From IMG/VR virus record IMGVR_UViG_2698536428_000017: a stretch of 40,320 nt of DNA; one strand, 5' to 3'. Position 1 is the stretch's first letter; each line of letters starts with the position of its first letter. This document shows, one piece after another, positions 6,057 to 40,320 of this stretch. Position numbers and translations under genes: made by a program. The notes under the pieces are model-generated. The model had not been told where the DNA came from. It saw only the letters and a list, made by a program, of their open reading frames with translations, and ran no database searches. The DNA is from a virus (Duplodnaviria; Heunggongvirae; Uroviricota; Caudoviricetes).

Positions 6057-6359
6057 TTACTCCGTTGATACCAGTAAATGACTGCGGCCGCCCAGATCAG
6101 TTTTCGTGGGATAATCCTGTGTGTTGTCATCGCAGACCACCACCAGCTTAAAACCAAGCCCCATACAGGCGTACTGCGCCAGCAGATCAGCGCCAGTGAC
6201 GAGAGGAATACCGGAGATTACCGGCTCCCCTCTGTCGTTCTGCAAGTCCATAATCCAGTAAGGATCGCGCCATATGATGCTAATCCGCCAGGTGACACCA
6301 CCCAGGACGATGCTGAACTGCTGGTTGTCCGCTGTCAGCGGAATTTCCTGAATTGTCAT
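6057..6359 (-). CDS. Small tail or baseplate protein
   Basis: 100 aa ORF, ATG at 6359..6357, tightly packed in tail operon. Confidence 0.45.
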   Translation of the reverse strand: MTIQEIPLTADNQQFSIVLGGVTWRISIIWRDPYWIMDLQNDRGEPVISGIPLVTGADLLAQYACMGLGFKLVVVCDDNTQDYPTKTDLGGRSHLLVSTE

Positions 6360-6946
6360 TAGCCGCCTCCCAGTAATGACGCCACGTTACCAGTGATGCT
6401 TTTCAGCAGTGAAGTATCTGGAGGCTTTGTGGTTTTGTTGCCGCTGTTCTGTACCGCCGACGTGCTGGCCCCTTCCTTCATGTTGGTTTTATCCGCGACG
6501 GTAATCTGCTGTGTCCGGGAGATAAGGACCTCCCTCAGGGTAAGGACGGCGGACAGGACATTTTCGGTTGTCTTGTCCGTCGTCACTTCCAGCGCCCGGA
6601 TCAACATGTTGCTGTACAGCCGTTTACCGGTTACCACATCGAAGGGGATACGGCTTTCCTGCAGATCCAGTAGCTCCTGATACGTCTGCTGAGGACTCAG
6701 GCCGAGCAGGCTGGTAGCCGTCAGGTTACTGGCAAAATCCAGCAATGTGCCGCCACCGGCGAAACCAACCTCCATCACCACTTCTGACGGTTTTTTATAG
6801 GCATGATCAGCGACAGCAGCCCCGACCTCTACCGGATGCTCGGTTATTTCAAGCATATCTGTATGCTTCTCTGAAATAACAACACTGGGAACAATCATTC
6901 CTATTTTTCTGCTCTGCTGATGGAAAAGTGTAGAGAGAATATCCAC
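6359..6946 (-). CDS. Tail protein following the tape measure
   Basis: 195 aa; GTG start overlapping tape measure stop with strong upstream Shine-Dalgarno; alternative ATG at 6898. Confidence 0.45.
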   Translation of the reverse strand: MDILSTLFHQQSRKIGMIVPSVVISEKHTDMLEITEHPVEVGAAVADHAYKKPSEVVMEVGFAGGGTLLDFASNLTATSLLGLSPQQTYQELLDLQESRIPFDVVTGKRLYSNMLIRALEVTTDKTTENVLSAVLTLREVLISRTQQITVADKTNMKEGASTSAVQNSGNKTTKPPDTSLLKSITGNVASLLGGG

Positions 6947-22755: not shown

Positions 22756-22948
22756 CGGAGTGGAACCACCTGCCCCCACCTGGAACCACCTTTTCCTAAC
22801 CTTTCCCTCAATCGACTTATATATATATGGGGTTTCTAGTAGAAAGGCGGTTCCAGTGGTTCCAGTAGTTCCGCCCCGCTTGCCACAAGGTCTGCAAGGT
22901 GGAACCACCTTCTCTTCTAGGTGGTTCCGCGTGGTTCCAGCGGTTCCC
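22756..22948. repeat. Iteron array of replication origin (core GGAACC / GGTTCC)
   Basis: TGGAACCACC at 22761 and 22781; GGTGGAACCACC at 22898; reverse copies at 22849, 22858, 22867 (9 bp period) and 22920, 22931, 22941 (10 bp period); AT-rich TTATATATATAT at 22818..22829. Confidence 0.6.
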
Positions 22949-25106: not shown

Positions 25107-25307
25107 TTACACCTTTTGTCTAGCTGTCACTTCCTGAAAAAGTTTTTCTATCGCACGTACTGTAGAAAAGCGAGGGTCAGAATGAACCCCGGTAAGAAGC
25201 CGACTAATAGAAGACTGCTTCACGCCTGCAATTTCGGCAATTTGGTTTTGGGTATACCCTGAATCAATCAAGCTTTTGACCATCTCTTGTGGTGTTAGTC
25301 CGGACAT
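25107..25307 (-). CDS. Cro-like HTH regulator
   Basis: 66 aa; HTH (YTQNQIAEIAGVKQSSISRLLTG); GGAGA RBS; divergent from repressor and first gene of the leftward operon. Confidence 0.6.
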   Translation of the reverse strand: MSGLTPQEMVKSLIDSGYTQNQIAEIAGVKQSSISRLLTGVHSDPRFSTVRAIEKLFQEVTARQKV

Positions 25308-25448
25308 ATTTAAGTCTCCACTTTCGTCTATAGCGCAAATTTATACGAAAACGGATTACTCAGCAATACAGCAATTCTATGTCATCCTAGATTAAAATAT
25401 CCGATAACGCATAATCACCGTCCCTGTATACAACATGGATGAATCCAA
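25308..25448. promoter_or_regulatory. Immunity switch region with divergent promoters and operators
   Basis: 141 bp between divergent Cro-like and CI-like genes; candidate leftward -10 TATAAA (25345..25340); motifs ATAGCGCAAAT and ATAACGCATAAT; operators not resolved. Confidence 0.45.
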
Positions 25449-26123
25449 ATGATTGATACTACCGATATCCTTTCTCAAAACATCAAGTACCTGATGGACA
25501 AAGCCAAGATAAGCTCGATAACTGAGCTGGCACGTCGGTTACAGCTGAACCAACCAACGCTACACAGGCTGGTATCAGGAGAGGTGAAAGATCCGAAATA
25601 CGCAACGTTAAAGCAGATCGCCGACTACTTCCACGTGTCACCAATAGACTTGGCAGAAAGGAGCCTTCAAGAAATGGAGAAAGAGGACGCGACAGGTATA
25701 AAAACGTATATTTCTCTTAGGTTTAATAAAGTACCTGTTTTGGGAAACACTCAGCTAGGCGTTGGAGGACTTTGGAGCGACACCCAATATTCAGTAGGTA
25801 GCAGTGATGGTTTCATATACTGGCCGACAAAGGATGAAGATGCATACGCCCTGAAATGTGTTGGTGATTCAATGATGCCTAGAATCAAAGAGGGGGAGTT
25901 CGTAATCGTCGAACCCAACCACGACTACACTCCTGGTGATGAAGTACTTGTGGTTACCCGGGAAGGTGAGGTCATGGTTAAAACCTTCTTGTTCGAACGC
26001 GATGGCCTGTTCCATCTAATGTCTGTAAATGAAGATCATCCACCAGTCAGAGTACCACGCGAAAACATTGAAAAAATCCATTACGTGGCGGGGATCGCCA
26101 AATCCGCGCTACGTATGTACTAA
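25449..26123 (+). CDS. CI-like repressor (N-terminal HTH, C-terminal S24 LexA-like peptidase)
   Basis: 224 aa; HTH region (SITELARRLQLNQPTLHRLVSG); S24 catalytic motifs GDSM and downstream Lys (VMVKTF). Confidence 0.8.
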   Translation: MIDTTDILSQNIKYLMDKAKISSITELARRLQLNQPTLHRLVSGEVKDPKYATLKQIADYFHVSPIDLAERSLQEMEKEDATGIKTYISLRFNKVPVLGNTQLGVGGLWSDTQYSVGSSDGFIYWPTKDEDAYALKCVGDSMMPRIKEGEFVIVEPNHDYTPGDEVLVVTREGEVMVKTFLFERDGLFHLMSVNEDHPPVRVPRENIEKIHYVAGIAKSALRMY

Positions 26124-26185: not shown

Positions 26186-26206
26186 TGCAAAATAATTCAT
26201 TTTCGT

Positions 26207-26235
26207 ATTGACACAAAATCCCATAACGCATATAA
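26207..26235 (+). promoter_or_regulatory. Near-consensus sigma70 promoter (TTGACA-17-TATAAA)
   Basis: TTGACA at 26207..26212, 17 nt spacer, TATAAA at 26230..26235; followed by palindrome CGCATAATTAATGCG at 26244..26258. Confidence 0.4.
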
Positions 26236-26429
26236 ATACGATATCGCATAATTAATGCGTTTTTTAATACTGGCTCTTTAACAAACTGAACCGCGTGACA
26301 GGTAAGCCGCAGTACTCCTGGCAAAACGAAATAGCACCCGATGGGATCGAGGTAAGCGCCGAGTCCGTATGCGTACGGTAAGCGTAGAGGACAACACCGC
26401 GACAAACTGATAAGTCACGCAAGTTGAAA

Positions 26430-26460
26430 CGCCCCGACGATGGGGCGCTTAGTTCCTTTT
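26430..26460. terminator. Hairpin CGCCCC-GACGAT-GGGGCG with U-rich flanks
   Basis: 6-bp GC stem; U-rich sequence on both strands; probably the ancestral terminator of the 174-aa gene, now separated from it by IS2. Confidence 0.4.
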
Positions 26461-26613
26461 GGGGTGGGGTGAAGATCAGTCCATTGAGTCAATCCGAAGT
26501 TCAGCATCTACCACTACACCACTAGACTGGCCCCCTGAATCTCCAGACAACCAGTATCACTTATTTAAGTGATAGTCTTAATACTAGTTTTTAGACTAGT
26601 CATTGGAGAACAG

Positions 26614-26979
26614 ATGATTGATGTCTTAGGGCCGGAGAAACGCAGACGGCGTACCACACAGGAAAAGATCGCAATTGTTCAGCAGAGCTTTGAACCGGGG
26701 ATGACGGTCTCCCTCGTTGCCCGGCAACATGGTGTAGCAGCCAGCCAGTTATTTCTCTGGCGTAAGCAATACCAGGAAGGAAGTCTTACTGCTGTCGCCG
26801 CCGGAGAACAGGTTGTTCCTGCCTCTGAACTTGCTGCCGCCATGAAGCAGATTAAAGAACTCCAGCGCCTGCTCGGCAAGAAAACGATGGAAAATGAACT
26901 CCTCAAAGAAGCCGTTGAATATGGACGGGCAAAAAAGTGGATAGCGCACGCGCCCTTATTGCCCGGGGATGGGGAGTAA
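26614..26979 (+). CDS. insC: IS2 transposase OrfA (InsC)
   Basis: Translation [41 protein letters not shown]... matches IS2 InsC; true ATG at 26614 (track ORF begins upstream). Confidence 0.9.
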
Positions 26980-27842
26980 GCTTAGTCAGCCGTTGTCTCC
27001 GGGTGTCGCGTGCGCAGTTGCACGTCATTCTCAGACGAACCGATGACTGGATGGATGGCCGCCGCAGTCGTCACACTGATGATACGGATGTGCTTCTCCG
27101 TATACACCATGTTATCGGAGAGCTGCCCACGTATGGTTATCGTCGGGTATGGGCGCTGCTTCGCAGACAGGCAGAACTTGATGGTATGCCTGCGATCAAT
27201 GCCAAACGTGTTTACCGGATCATGCGCCAGAATGCGCTGTTGCTTGAGCGAAAACCTGCTGTACCGCCATCGAAACGGGCACATACAGGCAGAGTGGCCG
27301 TGAAAGAAAGCAATCAGCGATGGTGCTCTGACGGGTTCGAGTTCTGCTGTGATAACGGAGAGAGACTGCGTGTCACGTTCGCGCTGGACTGCTGTGATCG
27401 TGAGGCACTGCACTGGGCGGTCACTACCGGCGGCTTCAACAGTGAAACAGTACAGGACGTCATGCTGGGAGCGGTGGAACGCCGCTTCGGCAACGATCTT
27501 CCGTCGTCTCCAGTGGAGTGGCTGACGGATAATGGTTCATGCTACCGGGCTAATGAAACACGCCAGTTCGCCCGGATGTTGGGACTTGAACCGAAGAACA
27601 CGGCGGTGCGGAGTCCGGAGAGTAACGGAATAGCAGAGAGCTTCGTGAAAACGATAAAGCGTGACTACATCAGTATCATGCCCAAACCAGACGGGTTAAC
27701 GGCAGCAAAGAACTTTGCAGAGGCGTTCGAGCATTATAACGAATGGCATCCGCATAGTGCGCTGGGTTATCGCTCGCCACGGGAATATCTGCGGCAGCGG
27801 GCTTGTAATGGGTTAAGTGATAACAGATGTCTGGAAATATAG
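26937..27842 (+). CDS. insD: IS2 transposase OrfB (InsD), DDE catalytic domain
   Basis: 301 aa matching IS2 InsD as recalled; overlaps insC in -1 frame, A6G slippery run present. Confidence 0.9.
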
Positions 27843-27877
27843 GGGCAAATCCAACCACCACCAAAGAGAACTGCTAA

Positions 27878-28402
27878 TCATCTGGCAGGTTGTAACGGTG
27901 CAGGAGTTTTGCCACTGACTTCTATATTTCGGGGAAATTTATATTCAGCGGAGCATTTATGACACTTGAGAATTTTATAAGCGGCATTAGAAGTATGGTA
28001 TTGAAGTATAGACTTCATACCCGACTCATAGCATGTAGTACAAAGATAATGAGGCTTGAACTCAGGATCGTCAGTAGGCTTCAGTACATAGACCACCGTA
28101 TTGGTAATCGGGTGGTACATTTCATAGTTCATTTTCTCACTATCCCAATCCTGTTTCTTTTCCAGAAGGGATTCGAGTTCAACAATGCGCTGTTTAGCTT
28201 CGTTCAAAAGCTCCGTTAGTGCGAATTGTCCAGTACGCGCATCAATTAGTTTATCAAGTAGATCGATAGTTTTACTTTTAACATTGTAATCCACCTGCAA
28301 CGCATTAACTTCTTTTGCTAAATCAACAGCACCTTTCAAAGCACCACCAGCACTAGTGGCCGCCTCAGTTATACGCCGTACAAGTCCTTTTTCTTCAGAC
28401 AT
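27878..28402 (-). CDS. Hypothetical coiled-coil plus zinc-ribbon protein, 174 aa
   Basis: ATG at 28402; C-terminal CxxC (CTTC) and CxxC (CHKC) pairs about 20 residues apart; about 42% GC; convergent with repressor gene. Confidence 0.6.
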   Translation of the reverse strand: MSEEKGLVRRITEAATSAGGALKGAVDLAKEVNALQVDYNVKSKTIDLLDKLIDARTGQFALTELLNEAKQRIVELESLLEKKQDWDSEKMNYEMYHPITNTVVYVLKPTDDPEFKPHYLCTTCYESGMKSILQYHTSNAAYKILKCHKCSAEYKFPRNIEVSGKTPAPLQPAR

Positions 28403-28419
28403 CTTAATTCTCTCTAAAA

Positions 28420-28470
28420 CTATAGGGGTAAAGAGATATTAGCCGAATTCTCGCTGTAGGGGTACAGAGA
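28420..28470. repeat. Two 17-bp direct repeats (CTATAGGGGTAAAGAGA / CTGTAGGGGTACAGAGA)
   Basis: 15 of 17 identical, 34 bp apart (28420..28436 and 28454..28470), in the divergent control region between the 174-aa gene and the rightward operon. Confidence 0.4.
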
Positions 28471-28541
28471 GAGCCATCTCGTCTGACGTGGTTAAAAGCA
28501 GGCATTCGCTGACATCCAAGTAATTGCTGTGTGTAGCCTTT

Positions 28542-28567
28542 GCCCGCCTCAAGTGACGGGCTTTTTT
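28542..28567 (+). terminator. Intrinsic terminator or attenuator upstream of the replication operon
   Basis: GCCCG...CGGGC stem (28542..28546 / 28557..28561) followed by T6 (28562..28567) on plus strand. Confidence 0.45.
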
Positions 28568-28626
28568 ATGTCTGAAAGCGCACTCGCAACAGCGTGCTCC
28601 CCGATATGAAAAAAGGAATACAACCG

Positions 28627-28776
28627 ATGAAACCTGAATACCTCCATCGACTGACGGGGCGCGATGTTCTCCGTTATCGCCGTAAAAACTTCGATTTGAT
28701 GACCGGTCTGGCCGTTGCCACTGCGCTCGGTCTGATCATCACTTTCATTCTCCTTGTAGCGAGGACCACAGTATGA
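28627..28776 (+). CDS. Small membrane protein, about 49 aa
   Basis: ATG at 28627 with AAAGGAA RBS (track ORF begins at an upstream GTG); C-terminal TM helix; stop overlaps next start (ATGA). Confidence 0.35.
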   Translation: MKPEYLHRLTGRDVLRYRRKNFDLMTGLAVATALGLIITFILLVARTTV

Positions 28777-29675
28777 GTTTAGAAACCAGTCTCGAACTTA
28801 ATAATCAACTTCTGGCACAACATAATGCGCTGCTTGAACGTCTTATCCGCACAATGGCATCAGGCATTGTTATGCATCCTGACACGATTTCACGAGTGCA
28901 GGAATGTCGGGATACAGCAACTGAAACTGAAAATATGTCAGCGGCAATGACACTGGATGATCTGGAGTTCAGCGACGTTATCGCACTGGCTGGTTTCTAC
29001 CCGGTAGCCACCCCTATCACAGAAGACATGCTGCAACGTGCTGTTGCCTACCGTGATGCTGAAGGCGATAAACGAGTAGTTCAGATTGATGCTCTCGACA
29101 GCGCATTGCAGGGCGTCAAACGAGCCAGGGCGCTGCTTAAACCTGCTCTCCTGGACCTGTCCCGTAACATCCTTAAGTTCTGGGACGACCTGCCAACCAT
29201 CGGCGAGCGACGTGTTTTTGCCGAGCAGCTACTTGATGCACCTGCGGATGGGCGTGATGAAGTTAAGCCGAAAAAGGCCAGTAACAAAGATGGAGAACGC
29301 ACGGGGCCGTTTTACGTCAAAAATGTATCCGGCACAGCAGCCAGTGAACTCCACACCTTACGCAAGTTGAACGAGATGCTGAAAAAAGGCCATATCGAGA
29401 TCAACCGTGTTGAGTACCTTCAGCTGCAAGAAGAATTTGCACGCAGAGACGCAGCAAATTCCAGCCAGAATCATGACGCCAAAGATGACCATACAATTGA
29501 TTTCGCGGCACTACGCAAACAAGCTGAAGGGTTGATCCTCCAGTTAGCAAAAGGGGGTTACCGGGCAGAAGCTATTGCAATTCTGGAAAAACAGGGAGCC
29601 AGGAAACTTGGTGAAGTAACGGATGAAAATCTCGCTGAAGTAATCACCCTGGCTGAAAAAGCACTGGAGGGTTAA
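28773..29675 (+). CDS. Hypothetical protein, 300 aa
   Basis: ATG with GAGGA RBS; normal GC; no family recognised. Confidence 0.55.
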
Positions 29676-29677
29676 TC

Positions 29678-30979
29678 ATGCCAGACGTTCATGCACAACT
29701 TTCTCCATCATCAGCGCATCGATGGATGCGCTGCCCAGGAAGTCTGGCGCTGGAGGCCACACAACCGGATAAAGAAACAACTTTTGCAATCGAGGGCACT
29801 GCAGCGCACGCGCTTGCTGAAAAAGTTCTACGAAACAGGCAAAGCTACCCGGAACACTACGCCGGATGCAATGTTTCTATGTTTCTCGGCTCATACCCCC
29901 TTCGCGAAAATCCTGATGATACATCTGGCCCACAGGTGGATGATGAAATGGTCGAAGCCGTTGGCCGGTATGTTGATACGGTCTGGACTCTTGCACAGAA
30001 TAATGAACTATTGGTTGAACAACGTGTTGATTTCTCACATATAACGGGTGTGGAAGAATCTTTCGGAACTGCCGACGGCATAATCATTGCTGGTAGCGAA
30101 TTACAAATCCACGACCTGAAATATGGCAAAGGCGTCCGCATTGATGCAGAACAAAATGAGCAACTACAACTGTATGCTCTGGGTGCGCTCGAACAATTCA
30201 GCATGCTGTATGACTTTGAGACTGTAAGATTATTTATTCACCAGCCAAGGCTCAACCACGTTTCAGAATGGTCGTTAACCGTACAGGAACTTCAGTCTTT
30301 CGGTGAACGGGCACTGGAGGCCGCAACCAGTGCGATCCTTGTTCTCAATATTGCTGAATGCGAAGGCATTGAGACACTACCGCTGGAAAACTTCATACCT
30401 GGAGAAAAACAGTGCCGCTTCTGTAAAGCAAAAGCTATTTGCACTGCCCAGAAAATGCAGCATTTACAAACAGCGGCCAGCGATTTTGAAGATCTGACAA
30501 AGCCTGTCAGCGAAATAATCTCCAATGCCAGCGCACGTGTACCTCTGTTAACCATTGAGCAGCTTGCGGAGATCTATAGCCAGGCCGACTTTATTGAATC
30601 CTGGCTAAAGGCAGTACGAGACCGGGTTCACAATGAACTCAATGCCGGACATCCGGTACCGGGGTTTAAACTGGTAACAGGAAAACAAGGTAACCGGGCC
30701 TGGAGTGATGAAGAGGCAGCTCGCGCACTTCTGAAGGACCAGTTCAGGTACAAAACTGAAGAAGTATTCGACTTTAAACTTATTAGCCCCACAAAAGCCG
30801 AAAAACTTATCAAAAAGGCCAGTCCGCGCCGTTGGTCAAAAGTCGAGGCACTGATAACACGAGCTGATGGTAAACCCACCATCGTTCCCGAGTCAGACCC
30901 ACGCCCCGCACTCAATATCAACCCTGTAAATGATTTCGACGACGTATCCGACGATACGCTAACCGCAGACCTCATCTGA
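29678..30979 (+). CDS. PD-(D/E)XK nuclease, Cas4/RecB-like with Fe-S cysteines
   Basis: 433 aa; N-terminal [15 protein letters not shown]; C-terminal C-x2-C-x5-C ([10 protein letters not shown]) with the N-terminal Cys gives the four-Cys pattern of Cas4-like nucleases. Confidence 0.65.
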
Positions 30980-30994
30980 TTTAAGGAAATACCC

Positions 30995-31543
30995 ATGAAA
31001 CTGAAGCTGAACAATGTTCGTCTGGCCTTCCCGTCTCTGTTTGAAGCTAAAACTGTAAACGGCGAAGGCGATCCACGTTTCTCCGCAGTATTTTTAATGT
31101 CACCCAAACACCCACAACTGGAAGAAATCCGTAAAGCTATGAAGCAGGTAGCGAAGGAAAAATGGGGAGAGAAGTGGGAGCCCATTTATAACCAACTGGA
31201 GAAAAAACTCAATCTGTGCCTGCATGATGGTGATGAAAAAGCAGAGTATGAAGGCTTCCCCGGCAATTTCTTCCTGAATGCTGCTAACAAAGCGCGCCCA
31301 GCTGTTCTTGATCGCGATCGTTCGCCACTTATTCAGGCTGATGGACGTCCCTATGCAGGGTGCTATGTAAACGCCGTTATCGATATCTGGGCACAGGACA
31401 ATAATTTCGGTAAACGCATTAATGCCTCACTCGGCGGAGTCCAGTTCCTGCGAGACGGCGATGCATTCGCTGGCGGCGGAGTGGCAAGCGCTGACGATTT
31501 CGACGATATCAGCGAAGGTGCTGATGCTGAAGCACTGATTTAA
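30995..31543 (+). CDS. ssDNA-binding-like protein (DUF2815-like by recollection)
   Basis: 182 aa; N-terminus MKLKLNNVRLAFPSLFEAK; acidic C-terminal tail (DDFDDISEGADAEALI) as in SSB proteins. Confidence 0.5.
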   Translation: MKLKLNNVRLAFPSLFEAKTVNGEGDPRFSAVFLMSPKHPQLEEIRKAMKQVAKEKWGEKWEPIYNQLEKKLNLCLHDGDEKAEYEGFPGNFFLNAANKARPAVLDRDRSPLIQADGRPYAGCYVNAVIDIWAQDNNFGKRINASLGGVQFLRDGDAFAGGGVASADDFDDISEGADAEALI

Positions 31544-31559
31544 CCCTACTTCATAGACG

Positions 31560-31577
31560 CCCGGTTAAATACCGGGC
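31560..31577. other. Stable hairpin between convergent genes
   Basis: GCCCGG-N7-CCGGGC; no clean U-tract on either strand, so not a canonical terminator. Confidence 0.3.
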
Positions 31578-31595
31578 TGCTGATTAGGCGTATAA

Positions 31596-32225
31596 TCACT
31601 CAGGAATCTTAATCTTCCTCAATTCTTTATTTAGTTCACAGATCTTCTTCTTAGACGGGAAAGTATCATACATCCAAAAACCAACAGTCTCTAAAACTAT
31701 TGTCATAACCATATACACAAGATAATTTAAAAGGCCTTCATTTTGCCCTATGGAAATAATGCAGATAATAGAAAAAAGGATAAACAGCACAAAACACAGA
31801 AAGGAAAACAGACGACTAATAATAAATAAAAAACCTGAAAAATTAACATTGATGAAAAACACTCCGTTATCTTTCTCTATATAATTCTGAAGCTTAATCA
31901 CCTGATTTATATACTGTCTTTTTTCTAATCTATTGCAAATGTAAATAACATCACTTCGGTTATAAGAAGATTGCAATTTCAGCGCATCACGAATAATTTT
32001 ATCATTTATTCTTTTTTCTATGGCACTCTTATCCTCCTTATCCAGATAACGTTCATACTTAACTAAATATAAAATTAACTTCTTGACATATTTAGGCTCT
32101 TTATACTTATAATTAAAAATGATCTTTCTTATCCAGACTCCCATAACAATCAAACATGAAAAAATATATCCAGCTATTTTCTCCAGATGCTCTGTATGGT
32201 CAATCAAGTATTGGATCATATGCAT
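31596..32225 (-). CDS. Hypothetical multi-pass membrane protein, 209 aa, strongly AT-rich
   Basis: About 23-35% GC in sampled 60-nt lines against about 52% flanking; predicted TM near residues 18-38 and two C-terminal TM helices; antisense to the replication operon. Confidence 0.6.
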   Translation of the reverse strand: MHMIQYLIDHTEHLEKIAGYIFSCLIVMGVWIRKIIFNYKYKEPKYVKKLILYLVKYERYLDKEDKSAIEKRINDKIIRDALKLQSSYNRSDVIYICNRLEKRQYINQVIKLQNYIEKDNGVFFINVNFSGFLFIISRLFSFLCFVLFILFSIICIISIGQNEGLLNYLVYMVMTIVLETVGFWMYDTFPSKKKICELNKELRKIKIPE

Positions 32226-32271
32226 AATTAATCTTTTAATCAGTTAATAGAATAAAAACCAAGGTAAACAC

Positions 32272-34335
32272 ATGTCCAATATACTATGGGGCGACCTGGA
32301 AACCTATTGCGAAATCCCTATTACGAACGGTACCCATGCGTATGCCGAAGGCGTTGAAGTGATGCTGTTCGCATGGGCTATCAACGACGGGCCAGTAAAC
32401 GTATGGGATATCACTGCCGGTGGTGGTATTCCACACGGCTTATACGAAGCAATCGCAGCCCCTGAAACCCTGCTTTATTTTCATAACTCTCACTTCGACC
32501 GCACCGTCCTGCGTTATGCAATGCCGCGACTGGCACCGCCAGTCGAACGTTGGCGCGACACGATGGTGCAGGCGCTGGCGCACGGTCTCCCGGGGTCTCT
32601 GGGGGAACTCTGCGAAGTACTAGGCGTCCCGCAAGACAAAGCGAAGGACAAAGAAGGTAAAGCGCTGATCCAGCTGTTCTGTAAGCCACGCCCGAAAAAC
32701 AGCAAACTGCGCCGGGCCACCAGCAAAACCCACCCGGAAGAATGGCGGCGCTTTGTTGCTTACGCCGGACTGGATATCGAGGCAATGCGCGAAGTCTATA
32801 AACGTCTGCCGAAGTGGAATTATCAGGGGACAGAACTGGCGCTCTGGCATCGTGATCAGCAGATCAATGACCGGGGCGTCTGCATGGACGTGGAACTCGC
32901 ACGCGCTGCGATCGACGCGGTAGACCAGGAACAAAAGCGCCTGGCAAAGCGTACACAGGAAATGACTGATGGCGAAGTGCAGGCAGCCACACAACGAGAC
33001 GCGTTGATTAAGCACATTGTTGAATCCTACGGTGTGGAGCTACCAGACATGCAACGCAGTACTCTGGAACGTCGTATTGCCGACCCCGATTTACCATCTG
33101 CCGTGAAAGAACTGCTGGCTATCCGCCTGCAGGCCAGTACTACCAGCACCAGTAAATACAAGGCACTGATGAAAGGCGTAAGCCACGACGGGCGCTTACG
33201 CGGTACGCTACAGTTCTGCGGGGCGTCACGTACCGGTCGTTGGGCCGGACGGCTATTCCAGCCCCAGAACCTTCCCCGCCCTTCACTAAAACAGGAACAA
33301 ATAGACGAAGGCATCGAAGCACTGAAAGCCGGATGTGCAGACCTGCTGTTTGACAATATCATGGAACTAACCAGTTCAGCGTTACGTGGCTGCATTATCG
33401 CGCCAACAGGCAAAAAGCTGGTGGTAAGTGACTTGTCGAACATTGAAGGCCGTATGCTGGCATGGCTGGCGGGAGAAGAATGGAAACTGAATGCATTCAG
33501 AGAGTACGACGCCGGAACGGGTCCGGACTTATATAAACTGGCGTATGCAAAAGCTTTCGATATTGCACCAGATGATGTTGATAAACACATGCGTCAGATC
33601 GGTAAAGTCATGGAACTCGGTCTGGGTTATGGAGGAGGTGTATCGGCTTTCATCACTTTTGCTCTGGTTTACGGTCTCGATCTCGACGGGCTGGCGAACG
33701 CCGCACTGCCAAACATTCCCCGCGATGTTATCCGCGAGGCGAAAAGCTGGTACGACGAATCGGTTAAACGTAAATCGACCTACGGGCTTTCTGAACGGGT
33801 ATTTATCGCCTGCGACTCACTTAAACGTCTCTGGCGCCGGGCGCATCCCGCGACCTGTGATTTCTGGTACGAACTGGAGTGCACCGTCCGCACAGCAATC
33901 GCCACACCGCAAAAAACATTGTATTGCGGTTATCTTAAAATCCGCCGCGATGGCGCGTGGCTGCGCATACAGCTACCATCCGGACGCGCTGTATGCTACC
34001 CGTCTCCGGTTATCGAACAAGGGAATATCACCTACATGGGTGTTAACTCTTATTCGCGTAAATGGCAACGACTCAAAACCTACGGCGGAAAGCTGGTGGA
34101 GAACGTCACCCAGGCGGCCGCCCGCGACGTTCTGGCCGGAAACATGCCGCTTATCGAAGATGCCGGTTACAGCATTGTGCTGACGGTACACGACGAGGTG
34201 ATCACCGAATCACCTGACACAGAAGATTTCAACGATAAAGCGCTTTCCGCGCTTCTCTCCACTAACCCCGAATGGGCGCCAGATATCCCACTGAACGCTG
34301 GCGGTTTTGAGGCGTACCACTACCGTAAGGATTAA
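32272..34335 (+). CDS. DNA polymerase, family A with 3'-5' exonuclease domain
   Basis: 687 aa; exo motif DLETY near N-terminus; Pol motif A (DLSNIEGR), motif B ([16 protein letters not shown]), motif C (VHDEV). Confidence 0.85.
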
Positions 34336-34340
34336 CTCCT

Positions 34341-34556
34341 ATGTCATTTAAATACCGGGACAATCCACTTTATTACAGGGCTGCAAGGGAGGCTTTGCGA
34401 CTTGAACAATCCGGCGAATATGACCGGGCAGCGAAGGTCTGGGCAAAAGCCAACCGCGAATCACATCACGAACTGAATCAGGAATGGAGTGAACGCAGAT
34501 CTGATTTTTGCCTGATGCAGAATATGCGTGAAAAGCGTAAGGCGGTCGAAGAATGA
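34341..34556 (+). CDS. Small PerC/ANR-like regulator (tentative)
   Basis: 71 aa; pattern A..LE..G.Y..AA..W...N..W..R..FC resembles small PerC/ANR-type regulators as recalled; AAGGA RBS. Confidence 0.35.
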   Translation: MSFKYRDNPLYYRAAREALRLEQSGEYDRAAKVWAKANRESHHELNQEWSERRSDFCLMQNMREKRKAVEE

Positions 34557-34852
34557 TCGTTTACGTTGCCGGGCCGATGAGCGGTTACGAGCAATTTAAC
34601 CGCCCGGCTTTTCATTCCGCAGCAAAGAGGCTAACGGACAAGGGATATGTTGTGCTTAACCCCGCAACTTTACCCAATGGTTTGACACAGGCTCAGTATA
34701 TGGACATCTGCCTCGCAATGCTTCGCTGTGCCGATACGATTTATATGCTCAAAGAGTGGGAGTACTCTGCTGGCGCACGTGCAGAAAACGCGTTGGCAGA
34801 GAAACTGGAATTGAATGTGCTTTTTGAAGAGTGGGATTCAGATGGCCTATGA
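34553..34852 (+). CDS. Nucleoside 2-deoxyribosyltransferase-like protein (DUF4406-like)
   Basis: 99 aa; N-terminal IVYVAGPMSG and downstream EWEYSAGA fit the NDT-like signature as recalled. Confidence 0.55.
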   Translation: MIVYVAGPMSGYEQFNRPAFHSAAKRLTDKGYVVLNPATLPNGLTQAQYMDICLAMLRCADTIYMLKEWEYSAGARAENALAEKLELNVLFEEWDSDGL

Positions 34853-35111
34853 ACGTGAAAGCCTTATCGAAAAGCACCTCGTCGCTGAAGTGAAAAAAGC
34901 TGGCGGAGTGGCCTTTAAGTTTGTATCTCCCGGTCACCGCTCGGTACCGGATCGCATTGTCCTGCTACCAGGTGGTCGTATCGTTTTCGTTGAATGTAAA
35001 TCTCCCGGCAAGCCACCACGGCCTGACCAATTGCGCGAACATGAACGTCTGCGAAAACTGGGCTTTACCGTAGTGGTGCTGGATAGCAAGAACCTAGAGA
35101 GGATATTATAA
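34815..35111 (+). CDS. VRR-NUC domain nuclease
   Basis: Motif PDRIVLLPGGRIVFVECK is a PD-(D/E)xK signature typical of VRR-NUC; true start may be the ATG at 34842. Confidence 0.55.
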   Translation: MCFLKSGIQMAYERESLIEKHLVAEVKKAGGVAFKFVSPGHRSVPDRIVLLPGGRIVFVECKSPGKPPRPDQLREHERLRKLGFTVVVLDSKNLERIL

Positions 35112-35115
35112 AAAT

Positions 35116-35685
35116 TTAGTCAATGCCTTTTTGATTGAACTTCTGATTCTCCAGTATGCTTTGCAGCTCAATATTATCATTTGCAGCGGTTTGTTTATGC
35201 TCATGATATTTTTCTTGCGTATAATTTCTTTCTCTTAGTTTCTGTGCGTAATTATTAGAAATAATATCATGACGATCTTGTAATACTTGTTCAAGTTGAC
35301 TTTTAAAGTCCTCTATCTTTTCATTAGAAATAACATTTTTGTACTTTTCAATATCACGGCGAAGTTCTTTTTCTTTCTTCTTATTAATGCTTAATAACTG
35401 TCGATTAACGCTACCTAAGGACCATTTAAACCCAATCGACTTTATCCAATGCGCCAGAAACATAGCGCAACTGGGAAGCATTAATAAAAGAAATGGCTTT
35501 ATTGTATTTAAATCAGAACCAATATACGGAAAACGACCGTCCCACGAGGACACCAGTAATGTTAAAAAACCAGTGATGCCACCAGCAGCAACATTAGAAA
35601 TCAGAGGGACTTTTTCGTAGCTATCAGGTTTAGAAGCGCTACTCAAACGTCCCTCCTTTGACTGATCTTCCAGCACGAATGGCAT
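35116..35685 (-). CDS. Cassette gene 3: membrane protein with two TM helices and a charged coiled-coil C-terminus, 189 aa
   Basis: ATG at 35685 with weak RBS, overlapping the previous ORF by 47 nt; low GC; convergent with VRR-NUC, 4 bp between stops. Confidence 0.5.
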   Translation of the reverse strand: MPFVLEDQSKEGRLSSASKPDSYEKVPLISNVAAGGITGFLTLLVSSWDGRFPYIGSDLNTIKPFLLLMLPSCAMFLAHWIKSIGFKWSLGSVNRQLLSINKKKEKELRRDIEKYKNVISNEKIEDFKSQLEQVLQDRHDIISNNYAQKLRERNYTQEKYHEHKQTAANDNIELQSILENQKFNQKGID

Positions 35686-35887
35686 TCATTGCAATTTTGT
35701 AAAATTCATCATCAGAAGAGACATCAACGACATCGCGACGGACAACTCCTTCTGAGTCAACACATTCAAGAACAAGATGATGTTTAGGCATAAGCGCAAA
35801 GCGTAACCGGTCAAACCCCATCTTAAGAACCCAATATAGTACGGGAAGCAGGCTAAAAAAAGCCAGCCAAAAAGCAAAAGCAATCAT
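35639..35887 (-). CDS. Cassette gene 2: small membrane protein, 82 aa
   Basis: ATG at 35887 with GGGGAGGGGG RBS; N-terminal TM helix (IAFAFWLAFFSLLPVLYWVL); competing 65-aa ORF in another frame starts with TTG and was not preferred. Confidence 0.5.
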   Translation of the reverse strand: MIAFAFWLAFFSLLPVLYWVLKMGFDRLRFALMPKHHLVLECVDSEGVVRRDVVDVSSDDEFYKIAMNAIRAGRSVKGGTFE

Positions 35888-35910
35888 AGCCCCCTCCCCA
35901 TGTGAATCTA

Positions 35911-36789
35911 CTATAAGATGCCGTGTACTTTAACAACTATGTACGTTTTGTCCAGCGAATTCAAGTTCTCACGGACGAGCAAATCAACGCAGTAAGCATC
36001 ACTAAAAACACCAGGTTCTCTTCCCGTACTAACACGTTGTAAGAACTCAGTATCTTCTATAGACACGCTGATTGTGTCATCGCCATAGTTGACTCGCCAG
36101 CCTGTGTTTTTATCCTTATGAATAGTCAAAAATGTGATTAGAGCCTCTTCAATCACCCTTTCAGACAAGGACTGCACTACAGGAACGCGCCTATATCTGA
36201 ACGGTTCAATATTATCTTCGTGCACCTTAATCAGCTCAACCCCCTGTTGAGTTGAAATTTTAAGCGATTCGTATCCTTCCTTTTGCAAAGGATTATGAAT
36301 TAACTTCGATAAGGATTTGCGTATGCTTGGTGAGGCAAGTAAAGGCCGGAAATATGACGGGGCTATAATTTCCTCACCATCATCCATAACTATTTTACAG
36401 TCTCCTTCCGCTGTTAAAGTCAACCGTTTTATTTGCCTACCATTGATCTGACGAATTAAGTCAATGAGAGTATTTCCTGCTGCGAGTGCAGTTGTACCTC
36501 CAAGCCCAATAATGCTTAATATATTCAAATGGTCAAGTGGATTTTGAATAACATCAATCAAATACTCAAATGAGCCTTCCTTAAAAGGCTCAACCTCAAC
36601 ATTAATACACTCACTAGTGCCATTGACAACCAAATTAACTTCTTTAAGCAAGTTGTTTAGTCCATTCAATGACTCAGTTAAAACATCCAAATCTATTTTA
36701 TGATCTGCTAGTGCGGGACCATCATATTTAACAACTAATTTATCAGTAATATTTTCTTCTTGCTGGACATCTGTATAAGCTGAGGTCAT
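35911..36789 (-). CDS. Cassette gene 1: hypothetical soluble protein, 292 aa
   Basis: ATG at 36789 with AAGGA RBS; about 33-38% GC; no recognisable motif; divergent from SNF2 gene with 67 bp between starts. Confidence 0.6.
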   Translation of the reverse strand: MTSAYTDVQQEENITDKLVVKYDGPALADHKIDLDVLTESLNGLNNLLKEVNLVVNGTSECINVEVEPFKEGSFEYLIDVIQNPLDHLNILSIIGLGGTTALAAGNTLIDLIRQINGRQIKRLTLTAEGDCKIVMDDGEEIIAPSYFRPLLASPSIRKSLSKLIHNPLQKEGYESLKISTQQGVELIKVHEDNIEPFRYRRVPVVQSLSERVIEEALITFLTIHKDKNTGWRVNYGDDTISVSIEDTEFLQRVSTGREPGVFSDAYCVDLLVRENLNSLDKTYIVVKVHGIL

Positions 36790-36856
36790 AACTGTTCCTT
36801 TCGAAATAAATAATTAAGCTATTACTACATAAGTTCATTCATGGAGATACAATACC

Positions 36857-38254
36857 ATGGACTATGCTATATTTTCACCTCACCCCTACCAAGATCTCAT
36901 CATCAATCATCAAATCGACATTATGCGCTGCAACATCTGGGCAGGTATGGGAATGGGTAAAACCGTGGCAACGCTCACTGCGCTGGAAGATCTTTTTATG
37001 GCAGGGGCAGAAACACGCCCCGCACTGGTCCTCGCGCCGCTACGTGTTGCAGCAAACACCTGGCCGGATGAAGCAGTGAAGTGGGGGCATTTGCGCAATA
37101 TCGAGGTGCAGCCGATTGTTGGTAATGCCAAAGCGCGCTCTACGGCGCTGGCGAACAGCAACGCAAGCGTGTTCACCATCAACTACGATAACCTTGTCTG
37201 GCTGGTTGAAGAATTGGGAGAACGATGGCCGTTCGGTATTGTCATTCCAGATGAAAGCACCCGGCTAAAATCCTTCCGGCTGCGAGGTGGTGGTAAGCGC
37301 GCGGCGGCACTGGGCAAAGTGGCGCATAAGTATGTCCGGCGCTGGATAAATCTCACCGGTACGCCAGCACCGAACGGCCTGGTAGATTTGTGGGGACAAT
37401 CGTGGTTTGTGGACCAAGGGCAACGTCTCGGGCGCACTTACGGTGCGTTTACCTCACGCTGGTTCAACTCGATACAGTTTCCGGGACAGAGCTGGACTAA
37501 ACTGGAGCCTTTTGCTCACTCACAGGGTGAAATACAGCGAGCATTAGCCGATGTGACCCTCTCGCTAGATGCGGCCGACTGGTTCGATATCAAAGACCCC
37601 ATCCATAACGTAATCCGCGTGGATATGCCGCCGAAGGCCCGTCAGCAGTATCGTGAAATGGAAAAGGAAATGTTCCTCGAGCTGAATGGCGAAGGCATCG
37701 AAGCACCGAACGCCGCGGCAAAGACACTGAAGTGTCTTCAAATCGCCAGTGGCGCAGTATACACAGACGACACCGGAAGTTGGTCAGAACTGCATGACAC
37801 CAAACTACAGGCGCTGGACAGCATACTGACCGAAGCAGCTGGCGCACCTGTGCTGGTTGCTTATCACTGGAAACACGATCTTGAACGCTTGCTTAAAGCA
37901 TTCCCTCGCGGTCGTCACCTCGACCAGGATCCACAGACACTGCGCGACTGGAATTCCGGAAAGATTCCTGTTCTCTTTGCACACCCAGCCAGCGCGGGCC
38001 ACGGCCTGAACATGCAGGACGGCGGAAATATACTGGTATTTTTCTCACACTGGTGGGACCTGGAGCAATATCAGCAAATTATTGAACGTATCGGCCCCAC
38101 CAGGCAGATACAGGCCGGACACAATCGTCCGGTATTTATTCACCACATTATTGCTGCCGACACTATGGACGAAATGGTGATGGAGCGGCGCAACTCAAAA
38201 CGAACAGTGCAGGACATCCTGCTCGATGCCATGAAAAAGAGAGGTATAGCATGA
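36857..38254 (+). CDS. SNF2-family helicase
   Basis: 465 aa; Walker A AGMGMGKT; motif II DEST (IPDESTRLK); C-terminal helicase lobe. Confidence 0.8.
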   Translation: MDYAIFSPHPYQDLIINHQIDIMRCNIWAGMGMGKTVATLTALEDLFMAGAETRPALVLAPLRVAANTWPDEAVKWGHLRNIEVQPIVGNAKARSTALANSNASVFTINYDNLVWLVEELGERWPFGIVIPDESTRLKSFRLRGGGKRAAALGKVAHKYVRRWINLTGTPAPNGLVDLWGQSWFVDQGQRLGRTYGAFTSRWFNSIQFPGQSWTKLEPFAHSQGEIQRALADVTLSLDAADWFDIKDPIHNVIRVDMPPKARQQYREMEKEMFLELNGEGIEAPNAAAKTLKCLQIASGAVYTDDTGSWSELHDTKLQALDSILTEAAGAPVLVAYHWKHDLERLLKAFPRGRHLDQDPQTLRDWNSGKIPVLFAHPASAGHGLNMQDGGNILVFFSHWWDLEQYQQIIERIGPTRQIQAGHNRPVFIHHIIAADTMDEMVMERRNSKRTVQDILLDAMKKRGIA

Positions 38255-38451
38255 GCGAGAAACCCGACGATTTACTCACCCCGGATGAAGTATGCCAAAA
38301 GTTAGGTATTACACAGAAAACGCTATGTGAGTGGAATATTAAGCATCGTCATCGGGCTATCCTGGCACCAATTCGTTTCAGTGCAAAAGTAGTTCGTTAT
38401 GAGCGCCGCAATGTCGACGCTTTTATTCAAAAGTGTCGCAGCCGGTATTAA
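38251..38451 (+). CDS. AlpA-like small HTH protein (candidate excisionase or regulator)
   Basis: 66 aa; LLTPDEVCQKLGITQKTLCEW then ...VVRYERRNVDAFI fits the AlpA/Xis-type winged HTH pattern; coupled (ATGA) to the helicase stop. Confidence 0.5.
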   Translation: MSEKPDDLLTPDEVCQKLGITQKTLCEWNIKHRHRAILAPIRFSAKVVRYERRNVDAFIQKCRSRY

Positions 38452-39845
38452 CCTCGCCGCCGTAGCAATGCCACCTGCGCAAGTATGCTCCGCTCGTGAG
38501 CCTCGAAAGCTTCGCGCTTTAACGCAATCTCTTCCTGCAAAATCTCATCAGAAAAGTCGTAATGTTCTGCCATCGGGTCATCTGACTTGCTGGAGTGGTG
38601 AAGGCAAAGGAGGCTGATTTCCCTTCGGTCTGATCGGGAATAGCCTCTTTCCTTCATCAAGGCAATAACATTGCTCTTAAGGAATTTACGGCACATCGTA
38701 TTAAATGCACCGTCTTTCCCTTTAACAGTCCCATCATGTTTTATTCCTTTTACAGCCCCATCCGGGCTGTATGTTTTCACTAGCTTATCCAGTGATCGTT
38801 TTGAAAATGGCTGCATTGGATCACGCGGCTGCAAAAATACATAATCCCTGTTGCACTCAGGAACTGAATCACGCCATGCTTTCTGCTCGTCGATAATCCG
38901 CCGGATCTCCGGCGTTATTGGCAGGCGGAAAGCCTTTTGTGTTTTCATAGCCCCTCGCATGCCGATAACCCCTTCAGGATAAACAATTTCGCCAGTCTCC
39001 TCGTGAACGTAGTCCCAGCGCAGGTTATGGACATTAATCGGACGAACGCCGGTGATGATCATGAAGCGAACAGCATTCTTCTGGTGTACAGAGGTGCAGG
39101 CGGCAACATTGAGCCAGAGCCGGGCGATTGACTCAATATCGGTAAAAAGCCGTGTGGGGGTGGGTTTCTGTACGCGGGAGGAAACATAATCATCTGGCAG
39201 ACTGGCAGCAACATTGCGACCGTTACAAAGAGTAGGTGCGCAGAACTTCCAGAACCGACGGAGCTCGGCAAACAACTCCAGGGCGTTATTGTTCGAGCGA
39301 GTGGCGATCCACTCGTCCAGCACTTCCACCAGCCGATTGTATGTTACGTCGCTGAACACCTCACGCTCGCCGAACGTTGCTTTAATCCGGTCGATACGCA
39401 CCCCGTAGGTTGTGAAACTGTCCGGGCTCAGCTTCTGCCGGGCGACTTTGGCTTTGAGGTCATCCCGGTACATTTCCAGCGCTGCATGTACGGACTCTGC
39501 CCGCAAGCCACCGTCAGCCATACCTAGCGCTTTTTCGCGCGCCAGCTGGATAGCGAGCTCCGGCCACTCGCCGAGCTTTTTACCCTTGAGGCCCATCTTT
39601 TTTGGAAACTCGGCGTAAAATGTAACCTTACCGGCTTTGCTGAAATCGATACGGAGATAGTTCTCTTTTTCGTATTTGGAACGGCGAGCCACGCCGGAAG
39701 CAGCGAGGATGATTTTGGCGGCAGCAACACAGATTTTCATGTGTGCGCTGGTATAGGGGGGTTTACAGGCGTCCCATTTTTCAGATGCGGCTAAAACATC
39801 GTCATTATTGGGGCTATCCGGATTATGTGTTACAGTGCGCGGCAT
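38448..39845 (-). CDS. Tyrosine integrase
   Basis: C-terminal half carries recombinase-like residues (TGVRPINV, LHH, EHY); adjacent to host gene; first ATG at 39845 (track ORF begins at TTG 39851), true start may be further in. Confidence 0.7.
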   Translation of the reverse strand: MPRTVTHNPDSPNNDDVLAASEKWDACKPPYTSAHMKICVAAAKIILAASGVARRSKYEKENYLRIDFSKAGKVTFYAEFPKKMGLKGKKLGEWPELAIQLAREKALGMADGGLRAESVHAALEMYRDDLKAKVARQKLSPDSFTTYGVRIDRIKATFGEREVFSDVTYNRLVEVLDEWIATRSNNNALELFAELRRFWKFCAPTLCNGRNVAASLPDDYVSSRVQKPTPTRLFTDIESIARLWLNVAACTSVHQKNAVRFMIITGVRPINVHNLRWDYVHEETGEIVYPEGVIGMRGAMKTQKAFRLPITPEIRRIIDEQKAWRDSVPECNRDYVFLQPRDPMQPFSKRSLDKLVKTYSPDGAVKGIKHDGTVKGKDGAFNTMCRKFLKSNVIALMKERGYSRSDRREISLLCLHHSSKSDDPMAEHYDFSDEILQEEIALKREAFEAHERSILAQVALLRRRG

Positions 39846-40050
39846 TCTCAATCCTTATCTGCGTAGGCGCAGAAAACAAGCTCACACATACAAGTCTTTT
39901 CTACGGGACAAAATGCAATGTGTTGCGGTTTTGTGTTGCTGGACTGAGTTTATCAAGGTTAAATACACTGGATCAACATACAGTAAGTTAATGACAGTAA
40001 AGCATACAAACTCGATACAACTTACTGATTTTAAAATGATTTAACGGTAA

Positions 40051-40320
<270 letters not shown>

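Follow-up and report, generated by a model that had tools for sequence, protein, structure and literature searches.

The polymerase arm of a contractile-tailed Escherichia coli prophage as the probable half of one divergently transcribed replication module

The stretch of DNA considered here (IMG/VR virus record IMGVR_UViG_2698536428_000017; 40,320 nucleotides, hereafter the window) is an Escherichia coli prophage with a contractile tail, inserted at yfhL, and it raises the question of whether a phage whose replication genes fall into two physically separated, divergently transcribed sets possesses two replication systems or one. A preliminary description, made from the sequence alone, had recognized both sets, and the gene map bears out their separation and opposite transcription. 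It had further taken the rightward set, at 28594-38451 (hereafter the right arm), for a second replication system distinct from the primase-helicase and origin of the leftward set (the left arm). The analysis presented here points instead to the right arm being one half, that which supplies polymerase and DNA processing, of a single conserved phage replication module of the T7 style, a reading to which a probability of roughly 0.85 is assigned.

Two complementary sets of replication genes

According to Pfam, PHROG and RefSeq, the genes named in the preliminary description are all present where it had placed them, and the five families that make up the right arm were additionally each recovered in the window by custom profiles. 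This arm is situated on the cI side of the immunity switch and extends to xis, int and attR. The features on which the argument turns are the following (aa, amino acids; SSB, single-stranded DNA-binding protein; HTH, helix-turn-helix):

29678-30979, plus strand: predicted Cas4/RecB-like PD-(D/E)XK exonuclease of the DUF2800 family, carrying a cluster of four Cys and ending in an acidic tail (PF10926, 369 bits)
30995-31543, plus strand: DUF2815, T7 gp2.5-type (Enc34-type) SSB and annealing protein (PF10991, 150 bits, full length)
32272-34335, plus strand: family A DNA polymerase, 687 aa, with a 3'-5' exonuclease domain (PF00476, 51 bits against a cut-off of 34.3; PHROG 17, 424 bits)
34815-35111 (RefSeq start 34842), plus strand: VRR-NUC nuclease (PHROG 93, 114 bits; RefSeq name)
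36857-38254, plus strand: SNF2-family helicase (Pfam, PHROG)
25449-26123, plus strand: CI-type repressor with HTH and S24 peptidase domains (PF00717, PF13443)
25107-25307, minus strand: Cro-like HTH regulator (phrog_6831; RefSeq HTH regulator)
22917-25103, minus strand: Prim-Pol + VapE primase-helicase, 728 aa (PF05272, 204 bits; PHROG primase/helicase)
22761-22939, both orientations: iteron cluster TGGAACCAC, five exact and two one-mismatch copies in 179 bp

The polymerase has diverged from solved structures (the best PDB match, a weak one, has an E-value of 1.4e-5) and possesses a complete motif set, namely ExoI-III (DxE, NxxxFD, YxxxD), A (DxSxxE), B (RxxxKxxxxxxxYG) and C (HDE), with the residues D8/E10, F75-D76, Y164/D168, D387/E392, R441/K445/Y453 and H640-D641-E642. 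All of these residues other than D76, which was taken from the window sequence alone, are invariant in four distant homologues, whose sources include Xylella, Serratia and Staphylococcus phages. As judged from these motifs, the architecture is that of a complete proofreading polymerase of the replicative type. The DUF2800 protein additionally matches PF12705 (38.6 bits) and carries the Cas4-type pattern C19 + C245-x2-C248-x5-C254 (C...CX2CX5C); on these features it is classified as a Cas4/RecB-like PD-(D/E)XK nuclease, and a sequence search found no solved homologue of it. The SSB is of the T7 gp2.5 type in both its PF10991 domain and its acidic C-terminal tail (...DDFDDISEGADAEALI). The Pfam score of the VRR-NUC protein, 19.5 bits, falls below the gathering score.

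The contents of the two arms are complementary. Alongside the polymerase, SSB and nucleases, neither Pfam and PHROG nor an iteron scan detected a primase, a replicative/hexameric helicase, an initiator or iterons in the right arm; conversely, the left arm contains the Prim-Pol/VapE protein and the iterons and, by Pfam and PHROG, no polymerase. The primase-helicase, whose N-terminus matches the Prim-Pol domain PF09250 (39 bits) and the vapE-like PDB entry 7pds (E-value 7.5e-34), adjoins cro, across cI from the right arm; the first gene of that arm is 3.5 kb away, or about 2.2 kb if the insertion sequence IS2 (see below) is not counted. The iterons straddle the stop codon at the 3' end of the primase-helicase gene. 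Chance alone would give roughly 0.3 exact copies of TGGAACCAC over the entire window, the total for which was matched by no shuffle, and the cluster is a likely candidate for the origin.

The association of the two sets was followed through 80 IMG/VR viral contigs encoding a related PolA, the open reading frames (ORFs) of which were scored against profiles derived from the window together with three named phages. All five right-arm families occur together in 57 of the 80 loci, and 55 of these 57 preserve the order and strand seen in the window (nuclease, SSB, polymerase, VRR-NUC, SNF2). Where at least 9 kb of upstream sequence is available (46 loci), one primase-helicase gene lies within reach in 41, belonging to the VapE type in 18, the PriCT_2+AAA_25 type in another 18 and the Prim-Pol+D5_N type in the remaining five; in 33 of the 41 it lies upstream and is encoded on the other strand, which is also the case in the window. 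Most loci of this polymerase lineage place the primase-helicase and the polymerase set divergently on either side of the immunity switch. That one partner slot is occupied by varying primase-helicase families implies that the polymerase set needs exactly one such partner, and a single slot that can be filled by different families therefore argues for one bipartite module, as two independent systems would not yield this pattern.

Homologues of the window polymerase are held in 1651 phage records, and versions of the module have been described before. The replication module of phage Enc34 is reported to consist of a primase, a transcription factor, polymerase, VRR-NUC, helicase and hypothetical proteins (PMC5686142), while a survey of annealing proteins recorded a "duf2800-gp2.5-polA module" in phages of both Gram-positive and Gram-negative hosts (PMC8093625). 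Hence, in place of the second replication system of the preliminary description, the arms are better viewed as complementary halves that are found together as one module both in relatives and in published descriptions (PMC5686142, PMC8093625).

An acidic tail of the form DFDD[VI]S...A[DE]LI is shared by the C-termini of the DUF2800 nuclease and the SSB (30920-30976 and 31490-31540). Paired tails recur over diverse related loci, with a tendency for the last residues to change together, and the motif is absent from the C-termini of PolA, SNF2, VRR-NUC and the primase-helicase. In T7, gp2.5 has an acidic tail that is implicated in its contacts with polymerase and primase-helicase (PMC5686142), an analogy which suggests that the shared tail could be a common docking site on the replisome. 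A co-varying shared tail fits two clients of one replisome partner, and thereby supports the presence of a single module.

Known modules and rival explanations

The T7 replisome is composed of gp5 (PolA), gp4 (primase-helicase), gp2.5 (SSB), gp6 (exonuclease) and gp3 (endonuclease), and the two arms of the window taken together resemble it in having a family A polymerase, one bifunctional primase-helicase, an SSB of the gp2.5 fold with an acidic tail, an exonuclease and a junction-cutting nuclease. They differ from it in combining Prim-Pol with VapE (an AEP primase with an SF3-like helicase) where T7 has Toprim and DnaB-like domains, in using nucleases of other families and in possessing an extra SNF2 helicase. 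The SSB fold has been compared with that of T7 gp2.5 (PMC5686142).

The preliminary description had also regarded the prophage as a mosaic that would not be predicted from any classical phage family; this view is contradicted by Xylella phage Xfas53, which shares the layout, and by the Jersey-like phages, which share the divergent core. The temperate podophage Xfas53 (NC_013599) matches the window throughout its arrangement of regulatory and replication genes: the cI side carries a DUF2800 exonuclease, a gp2.5-like SSB, a polymerase 56% identical to that of the window, a VRR-NUC-type nuclease, an SNF2-type helicase, xis and int, and the other side a primase (undetected by the VapE profile), a Q-like antiterminator, holin, endolysin, Rz/Rz1 and terminase. 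It likewise has an accessory gene (Ant) inserted between SSB and pol. Xfas53 differs in its P22-like podoviral virion, which has no contractile tail, and in an int gene co-directional with the operon. The divergent core of the Guernseyvirinae (Jersey-like phages, including Serratia phage vB_SmaM-Otaku) is identical to that of the window, with Otaku encoding leftward a VapE-type primase-helicase and a small lambda-repressor-like HTH gene, and rightward DUF2800, SSB, PolA (42% identical), nuclease and SNF2 helicase; these phages differ in lacking an S24-domain CI repressor and an integrase and in having other accessory genes.

More distant counterparts are found in two further groups. The Enc34/Chi-like ("Nazgul-like") phages carry primase, transcription factor, polymerase, VRR-NUC, helicase and DUF2815 SSB as one replication module (PMC5686142), and PF10991, the family matching the window SSB, was built on the Enc34 protein. 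However, these are virulent siphophages without a CI/Cro switch or integrase, and the polymerases of Chi-like Salmonella and Klebsiella phages are only about 30% identical to that of the window. The Enc34 SSB is the only member of the Enc34/Xfas53-type module to have been characterized (PMC5686142). Temperate phages of Staphylococcus and Streptococcus (phiSa2wa_st30, Triavirus) contain the same six families, i.e., Cas4-like nuclease, DUF2815, PolA, VapE (virE), VRR-NUC and SNF2 (PMC8093625). Unlike in the window, all genes of phiSa2wa are co-directional, with VapE between PolA and VRR-NUC, and its PolA is 32% identical.

Several observations weigh against the single-module interpretation. In five of the 46 loci no primase-helicase lies within 10 kb, and the 80 loci, being those most closely related to the query, include several E. 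coli prophages that are almost identical to one another, so that the locus counts are indicative and not independent. The SNF2 helicase, a 300-aa protein near the start of the arm and a DUF4406 protein within it have at most putative roles in replication, and the promoter, operators, origin and antitermination all rest on sequence inference. Further, a generic promoter scan gave no promoter in 28403-28594 and, under its -10 hexamer rule, did not list the PL-like candidate discussed below, and in this strain IS2 separates the PL leader cassette from the rest of the early operon.

These points have to be set beside what the alternatives require. The physical separation and opposite transcription of the gene sets would suit two independent, possibly redundant systems, with an origin-dependent primase-helicase that uses the host polymerase on one side and a self-contained polymerase system on the other, and for many temperate phages an initiator or helicase loader, together with host Pol III, is indeed sufficient for replication. 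Such a partition is nevertheless very improbable, given that the right arm lacks its own primase, replicative helicase, initiator and iterons, that exactly one primase-helicase, of whatever family, accompanies the polymerase set in 41 of the 46 loci, that VapE lies inside the same co-directional block in Staphylococcus phages, and that these genes have been described as a single module (PMC5686142). A different division of labor, unlikely but somewhat less so, would make the right arm mainly a recombination, repair or anti-defence operon analogous to that of lambda PL (exo, bet, gam), with its polymerase serving recombination-dependent or translesion synthesis while host Pol III, recruited via the primase-helicase, performs bulk replication. 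The arm does hold the position of a PL operon, with a leader that shares 85 bp with the sieB-ral region of P22/lambda-like phages, its DUF2800 nuclease and annealing-type SSB resemble an exo/bet pair (DUF2815 has been classed among the single-strand annealing proteins; PMC8093625), VRR-NUC and SNF2 represent repair-type activities, and accessory, defence-like inserts are embedded in it. However, the strictly virulent Guernseyvirinae and Chi/Enc34-like phages carry the set as their only polymerase-containing module, annotated as replication (PMC5686142), and the polymerase has the predicted proofreading, replicative-type architecture in full.

That the right arm came from another mobile element next to this one, be it a satellite or a second prophage fused to the first, might be suspected from the patchy base composition and from a transposase with an integrase-core (rve) domain between cI and the arm. 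The features that bear on this are:

26523-27853, plus strand: IS2, 1331 bp, with orfA at 26569-26979 and orfB at 26937-27842 (Pfam HTH_Tnp_1, rve; RefSeq "IS3-like element IS2 family transposase")
38251-38451, plus strand: HTH_17 excisionase-like DNA-binding protein, at the end of the right arm (Pfam, PHROG)
38448-39851, minus strand: tyrosine integrase (Pfam, RefSeq, PHROG)
40070-40107, plus strand: attR core, a 38-bp repeat of the yfhL 5' end (perfect repeat of locus L002 2320-2357; yfhL annotated in L001)

The transposase is that of IS2, a member of the IS3 family, which has the attributes of that element and is bordered by a 5-bp target duplication (26518-26522 and 27854-27858); it is absent from E. 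coli strain P4 and the nearest relatives, missing from prophages that are about 99% identical, and present at this site in one of 5426 complete genomes. Moreover, the order primase-helicase, cI, nuclease-SSB-polymerase-nuclease-SNF2, int recurs in more than 15 related contigs, and the whole prophage has one integrase and one att core, at yfhL. A second integrase or att site between the arms, which the preliminary description had named as evidence that would refute it, is not there, and only IS2 intervenes. Both replication arms belong to one prophage, and an adjacent element is scarcely credible as the source of the right one. The integrase and the 38-bp attR core in yfhL mark the right end of this prophage, which provides a replacement start for yfhL (MSLL in place of MALL; window 40060-40107, L002 2310-2357) that leaves the ferredoxin gene intact.

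The prophage type is already on deposit as vB_EcoM-606R2, and most of its genes carry RefSeq names. The right arm is 100% identical to strain P4 and, over 75% of its span, 97% identical to the deposited phages vB_EcoM-606R2, -689R2 and -611R5; related DNA occurs in 161 of the 5426 complete E. coli genomes, in every case on the chromosome. A literature search on vB_EcoM-606R2 and the related deposited phages found nothing relevant.

The early leader and its RNA elements

If the two arms constitute one module, the manner in which the polymerase half is expressed becomes of interest. The region between cI and the first right-arm gene contains, in addition to IS2, the following:

26205-26252 (hexamers 26205-26233), plus strand: predicted PL-like promoter TTGACA-N17-TATAAA, directly after cI and its terminator
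26273-26447, plus strand: leader cassette of 175 nt, an rrn-type boxA followed by about 160 nt of conserved structured non-coding sequence with a GC hairpin at its end (homology)
27878-28402, minus strand: 174-aa antisense accessory gene at the sieB position of P22/lambda-like phages (phrog_1244)
28420-28505, plus strand: 85-bp segment with about 82% identity to the DNA between sieB and ral in P22, HK620 and lambda-like phages
28522-28573, plus strand: 3' end resembling the RprA small RNA (sRNA), AATTGCTGTGTGTAGCCTTTGCCC, with terminator hairpin 28542-28567 and T6 (Rfam, identity to rprA)

The OR motif CGATAACGCATAAT is found as an exact copy at 25402, in the cI-cro spacer, and with one mismatch at 26239 and three mismatches at 26221, the latter two copies overlapping the PL-like promoter. 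Promoter and motif copies together are likely to represent a CI-controlled PL/OL equivalent, which lies about 1 kb upstream of the first right-arm gene (about 2.3 kb counting IS2). In the immediate leader, 28395-28630, matches to the CI operator are at chance level only. The generic promoter and terminator scan, the output of which was no higher than that from shuffles, missed both the PL candidate and the 28542 hairpin on account of its fixed rules.

Around 35 nt downstream of the predicted PL start, an exact boxA, GCTCTTTAACAA (26273-26284), which is the sole exact copy in the window, opens the 175-nt cassette. The homology boundaries of the cassette are sharp in L012, L014, L015 and L028 despite their differing flanks, and the approximately 160 nt after boxA are almost invariant and strongly structured; the PL leader has no credible match in Rfam. 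Of the elements of a lambdoid N/nut system, a boxA in the early leader is present and an N-family gene and boxB hairpin are not: there is no plus-strand ORF of 40 aa or more between PL and IS2, so no N-like gene resides there, and a boxB was not recognized. The cassette may hence be an RNA-based or Nus-factor-based antitermination site. In compact relatives, e.g., L014, no more than about 50 bp separate the cassette from the terminator and the operon's first genes downstream, and it is into this gap that the window has acquired IS2, the 174-aa antisense gene and the 85-bp segment, the last of which holds two direct repeats CTRTAGGGGTA. Because IS2 stands between PL and the operon, this copy of the module may be expressed differently or be defective, and in this strain IS2 may exert a polar effect on the polymerase operon.

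In its general plan, the region parallels the PL operon of lambda and P22, in which a repressor gene and a strong operator-overlapped promoter reading away from it are succeeded by a boxA-containing leader, an antisense accessory gene at the sieB position, recombination-type genes, xis and, last, int. The window differs from these phages in having no detected N or gene-24 homologue and no recognisable boxB, in a boxA that conforms to the rrn consensus and not the lambda variant, and in a cargo that is the polymerase module and not exo/bet/gam. The 174-aa protein itself was considered as a SieB homologue and rejected, as BLASTP against P22 SieB gave no meaningful alignment and only the 85-bp DNA segment is shared.

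The hairpin at 28542-28567 and the T6 following it, which the preliminary description had reported, are real. The attenuation control that it had suggested is only partly sustained: a terminator does precede the first gene of the arm, but it belongs to an RprA-like sRNA 3' end, and with PL and an exact boxA upstream, the combination of boxA, long untranslated leader, terminator and antisense inserts would favor processive antitermination over classical attenuation. Rfam returned nothing for the whole window at gathering thresholds; its family RF00034 aligns to 28458-28571 at 45.5 bits (E-value 7e-5), short of the gathering score of 70, and relatives score 48-55 bits, likewise below it. Positions 28522-28567 (46 nt) share 82.6% identity with the rprA gene annotated on the chromosome, with matches spanning 5420 of the 5426 E. 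coli genomes and an rprA annotation in all 11 non-prophage rows sampled from those matches. Clear homology to RprA is confined to the 3' 46-50 nt.

This element recurs at L014 6369-6417, L028 4357-4406, L087 6876-6925 and L016 ~6330-6380, and in diverged relatives the single-stranded stretch TTGCTGTGTGTAG(T/C)CTTTGCCC is kept, with compensating changes in the stem. The RprA sRNA has an rpoS-pairing seed, UCCCCUGAGU..., and an RcsB-dependent promoter; a seed-like CCCCTGAGT is kept in L087 and L016 and is degenerate in the window (TTCGCTGAC). A pairing of the RprA-like AATTGCTGTG with the cI-cro spacer was dropped as being at chance level (about two hits expected). Nothing relevant was found in the literature on "RprA-like" prophage elements.

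A tentative possibility, with the odds against it, is that the leader constitutes an undescribed compound RNA control device, in which a CI-repressed PL would be joined to a mobile boxA/structured-RNA cassette without an N-like gene and to a captured, selectively maintained RprA 3' half acting as terminator. Upon induction, terminated transcripts might then release an Hfq-type RprA-mimic sRNA, the effect of which would be on targets in the host or a titration of Hfq, while RNA- or Nus-modified polymerase would read through the terminator and antisense inserts into the replication genes.

Accessory genes, a possible replication cycle and its significance

The remaining genes of the right arm surround and interrupt the five core families:

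28627-28776, plus strand: 49-aa small hydrophobic protein, first gene of the arm (RefSeq CDS, i.e., coding sequence; phrog_11981)
28773-29675, plus strand: 300-aa conserved protein, phrog_6784 (587 homologues, all "hypothetical", in enterobacterial prophages)
31596-32225, minus strand: 209-aa antisense insert in the slot between SSB and polymerase (phrog_10579; GC 0.415)
34341-34556, plus strand: ANR/PerC-like regulator, 71 aa, between the polymerase and VRR-NUC genes
34553-34852, plus strand: DUF4406 nucleoside 2-deoxyribosyltransferase-like protein, also between the polymerase and VRR-NUC genes
35116-36789, minus strand: three-gene antisense insert (189/176, 82 and 292 aa; GC 0.39)

RefSeq begins the first gene at ATG 28627 (49 aa), which displaces a previously listed start at GTG 28594. 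The 300-aa protein is all-helical, and enterobacterial relatives likewise have its gene as the operon's first large one; the protein has no match in Pfam, NCBIfam or PADLOC, and its AlphaFold (AF2) model, from a 19-sequence alignment, was too poor for a fold search (mean pLDDT 53.5, pTM 0.33).

The right arm had been described as a rightward operon, and its core genes are indeed co-directional; the run is, however, broken twice by four minus-strand, low-GC genes, at 31596-32225 and 35116-36789. The 292-aa protein of the second insert (35911-36789) matches the PADLOC candidate PDC-S42 (135.6 bits) and the NCBIfam family LAPAL_fam NF053583 (194 bits), and PADLOC gave no match for the 209-, 189-, 82- and 174-aa proteins. 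In relatives, the slot at 35116-36789 is occupied by TIR-like, Dcm or Nmad5 genes. The module thus has two fixed variable slots that collect antisense accessory or defence-candidate genes. The SNF2 helicase was rejected as a defence gene: its PADLOC matches, to DpdE, ZorD and DrmD, reach 40 bits at most and are generic to the helicase domain, and they are therefore not counted as defence evidence.

Assembled, these elements allow a replication cycle to be sketched from the sequence, in which the proteins of the module would putatively act together. The right-arm genes would form the PL-equivalent early operon of a lambda-like regulatory chassis, and the primase-helicase with its iterons the PR-equivalent operon next to cro, such that cleavage of CI would derepress both divergent early promoters simultaneously. 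The primase-helicase would open the iteron origin and prime synthesis, to be extended by PolA while the SSB coats the displaced strand; the exonuclease and annealing SSB, together with VRR-NUC and SNF2, could then process ends and branches for recombination-dependent replication and concatemer maturation. The boxA-led PL transcript would have to cross the RprA-like terminator and the antisense inserts, and expression of the polymerase half would probably depend on processive antitermination.

In conclusion, the gene set is a standard, widely distributed and already described phage replisome module in its usual arrangement, and, the module being known and common, the finding is in this respect an ordinary one. 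In the literature searched, none was found on an RprA-like 3' end or boxA-led cassette in an early leader, on the shared tail of nuclease and SSB or on the two accessory slots. Of these, only the leader RNA elements may be novel. What the locus offers is, in the main, a correction, in that a divergent primase-helicase and polymerase set is not to be read as two systems; beyond this, the leader RNA elements, the co-varying nuclease-SSB tail and the two accessory slots are the aspects that may be of interest.

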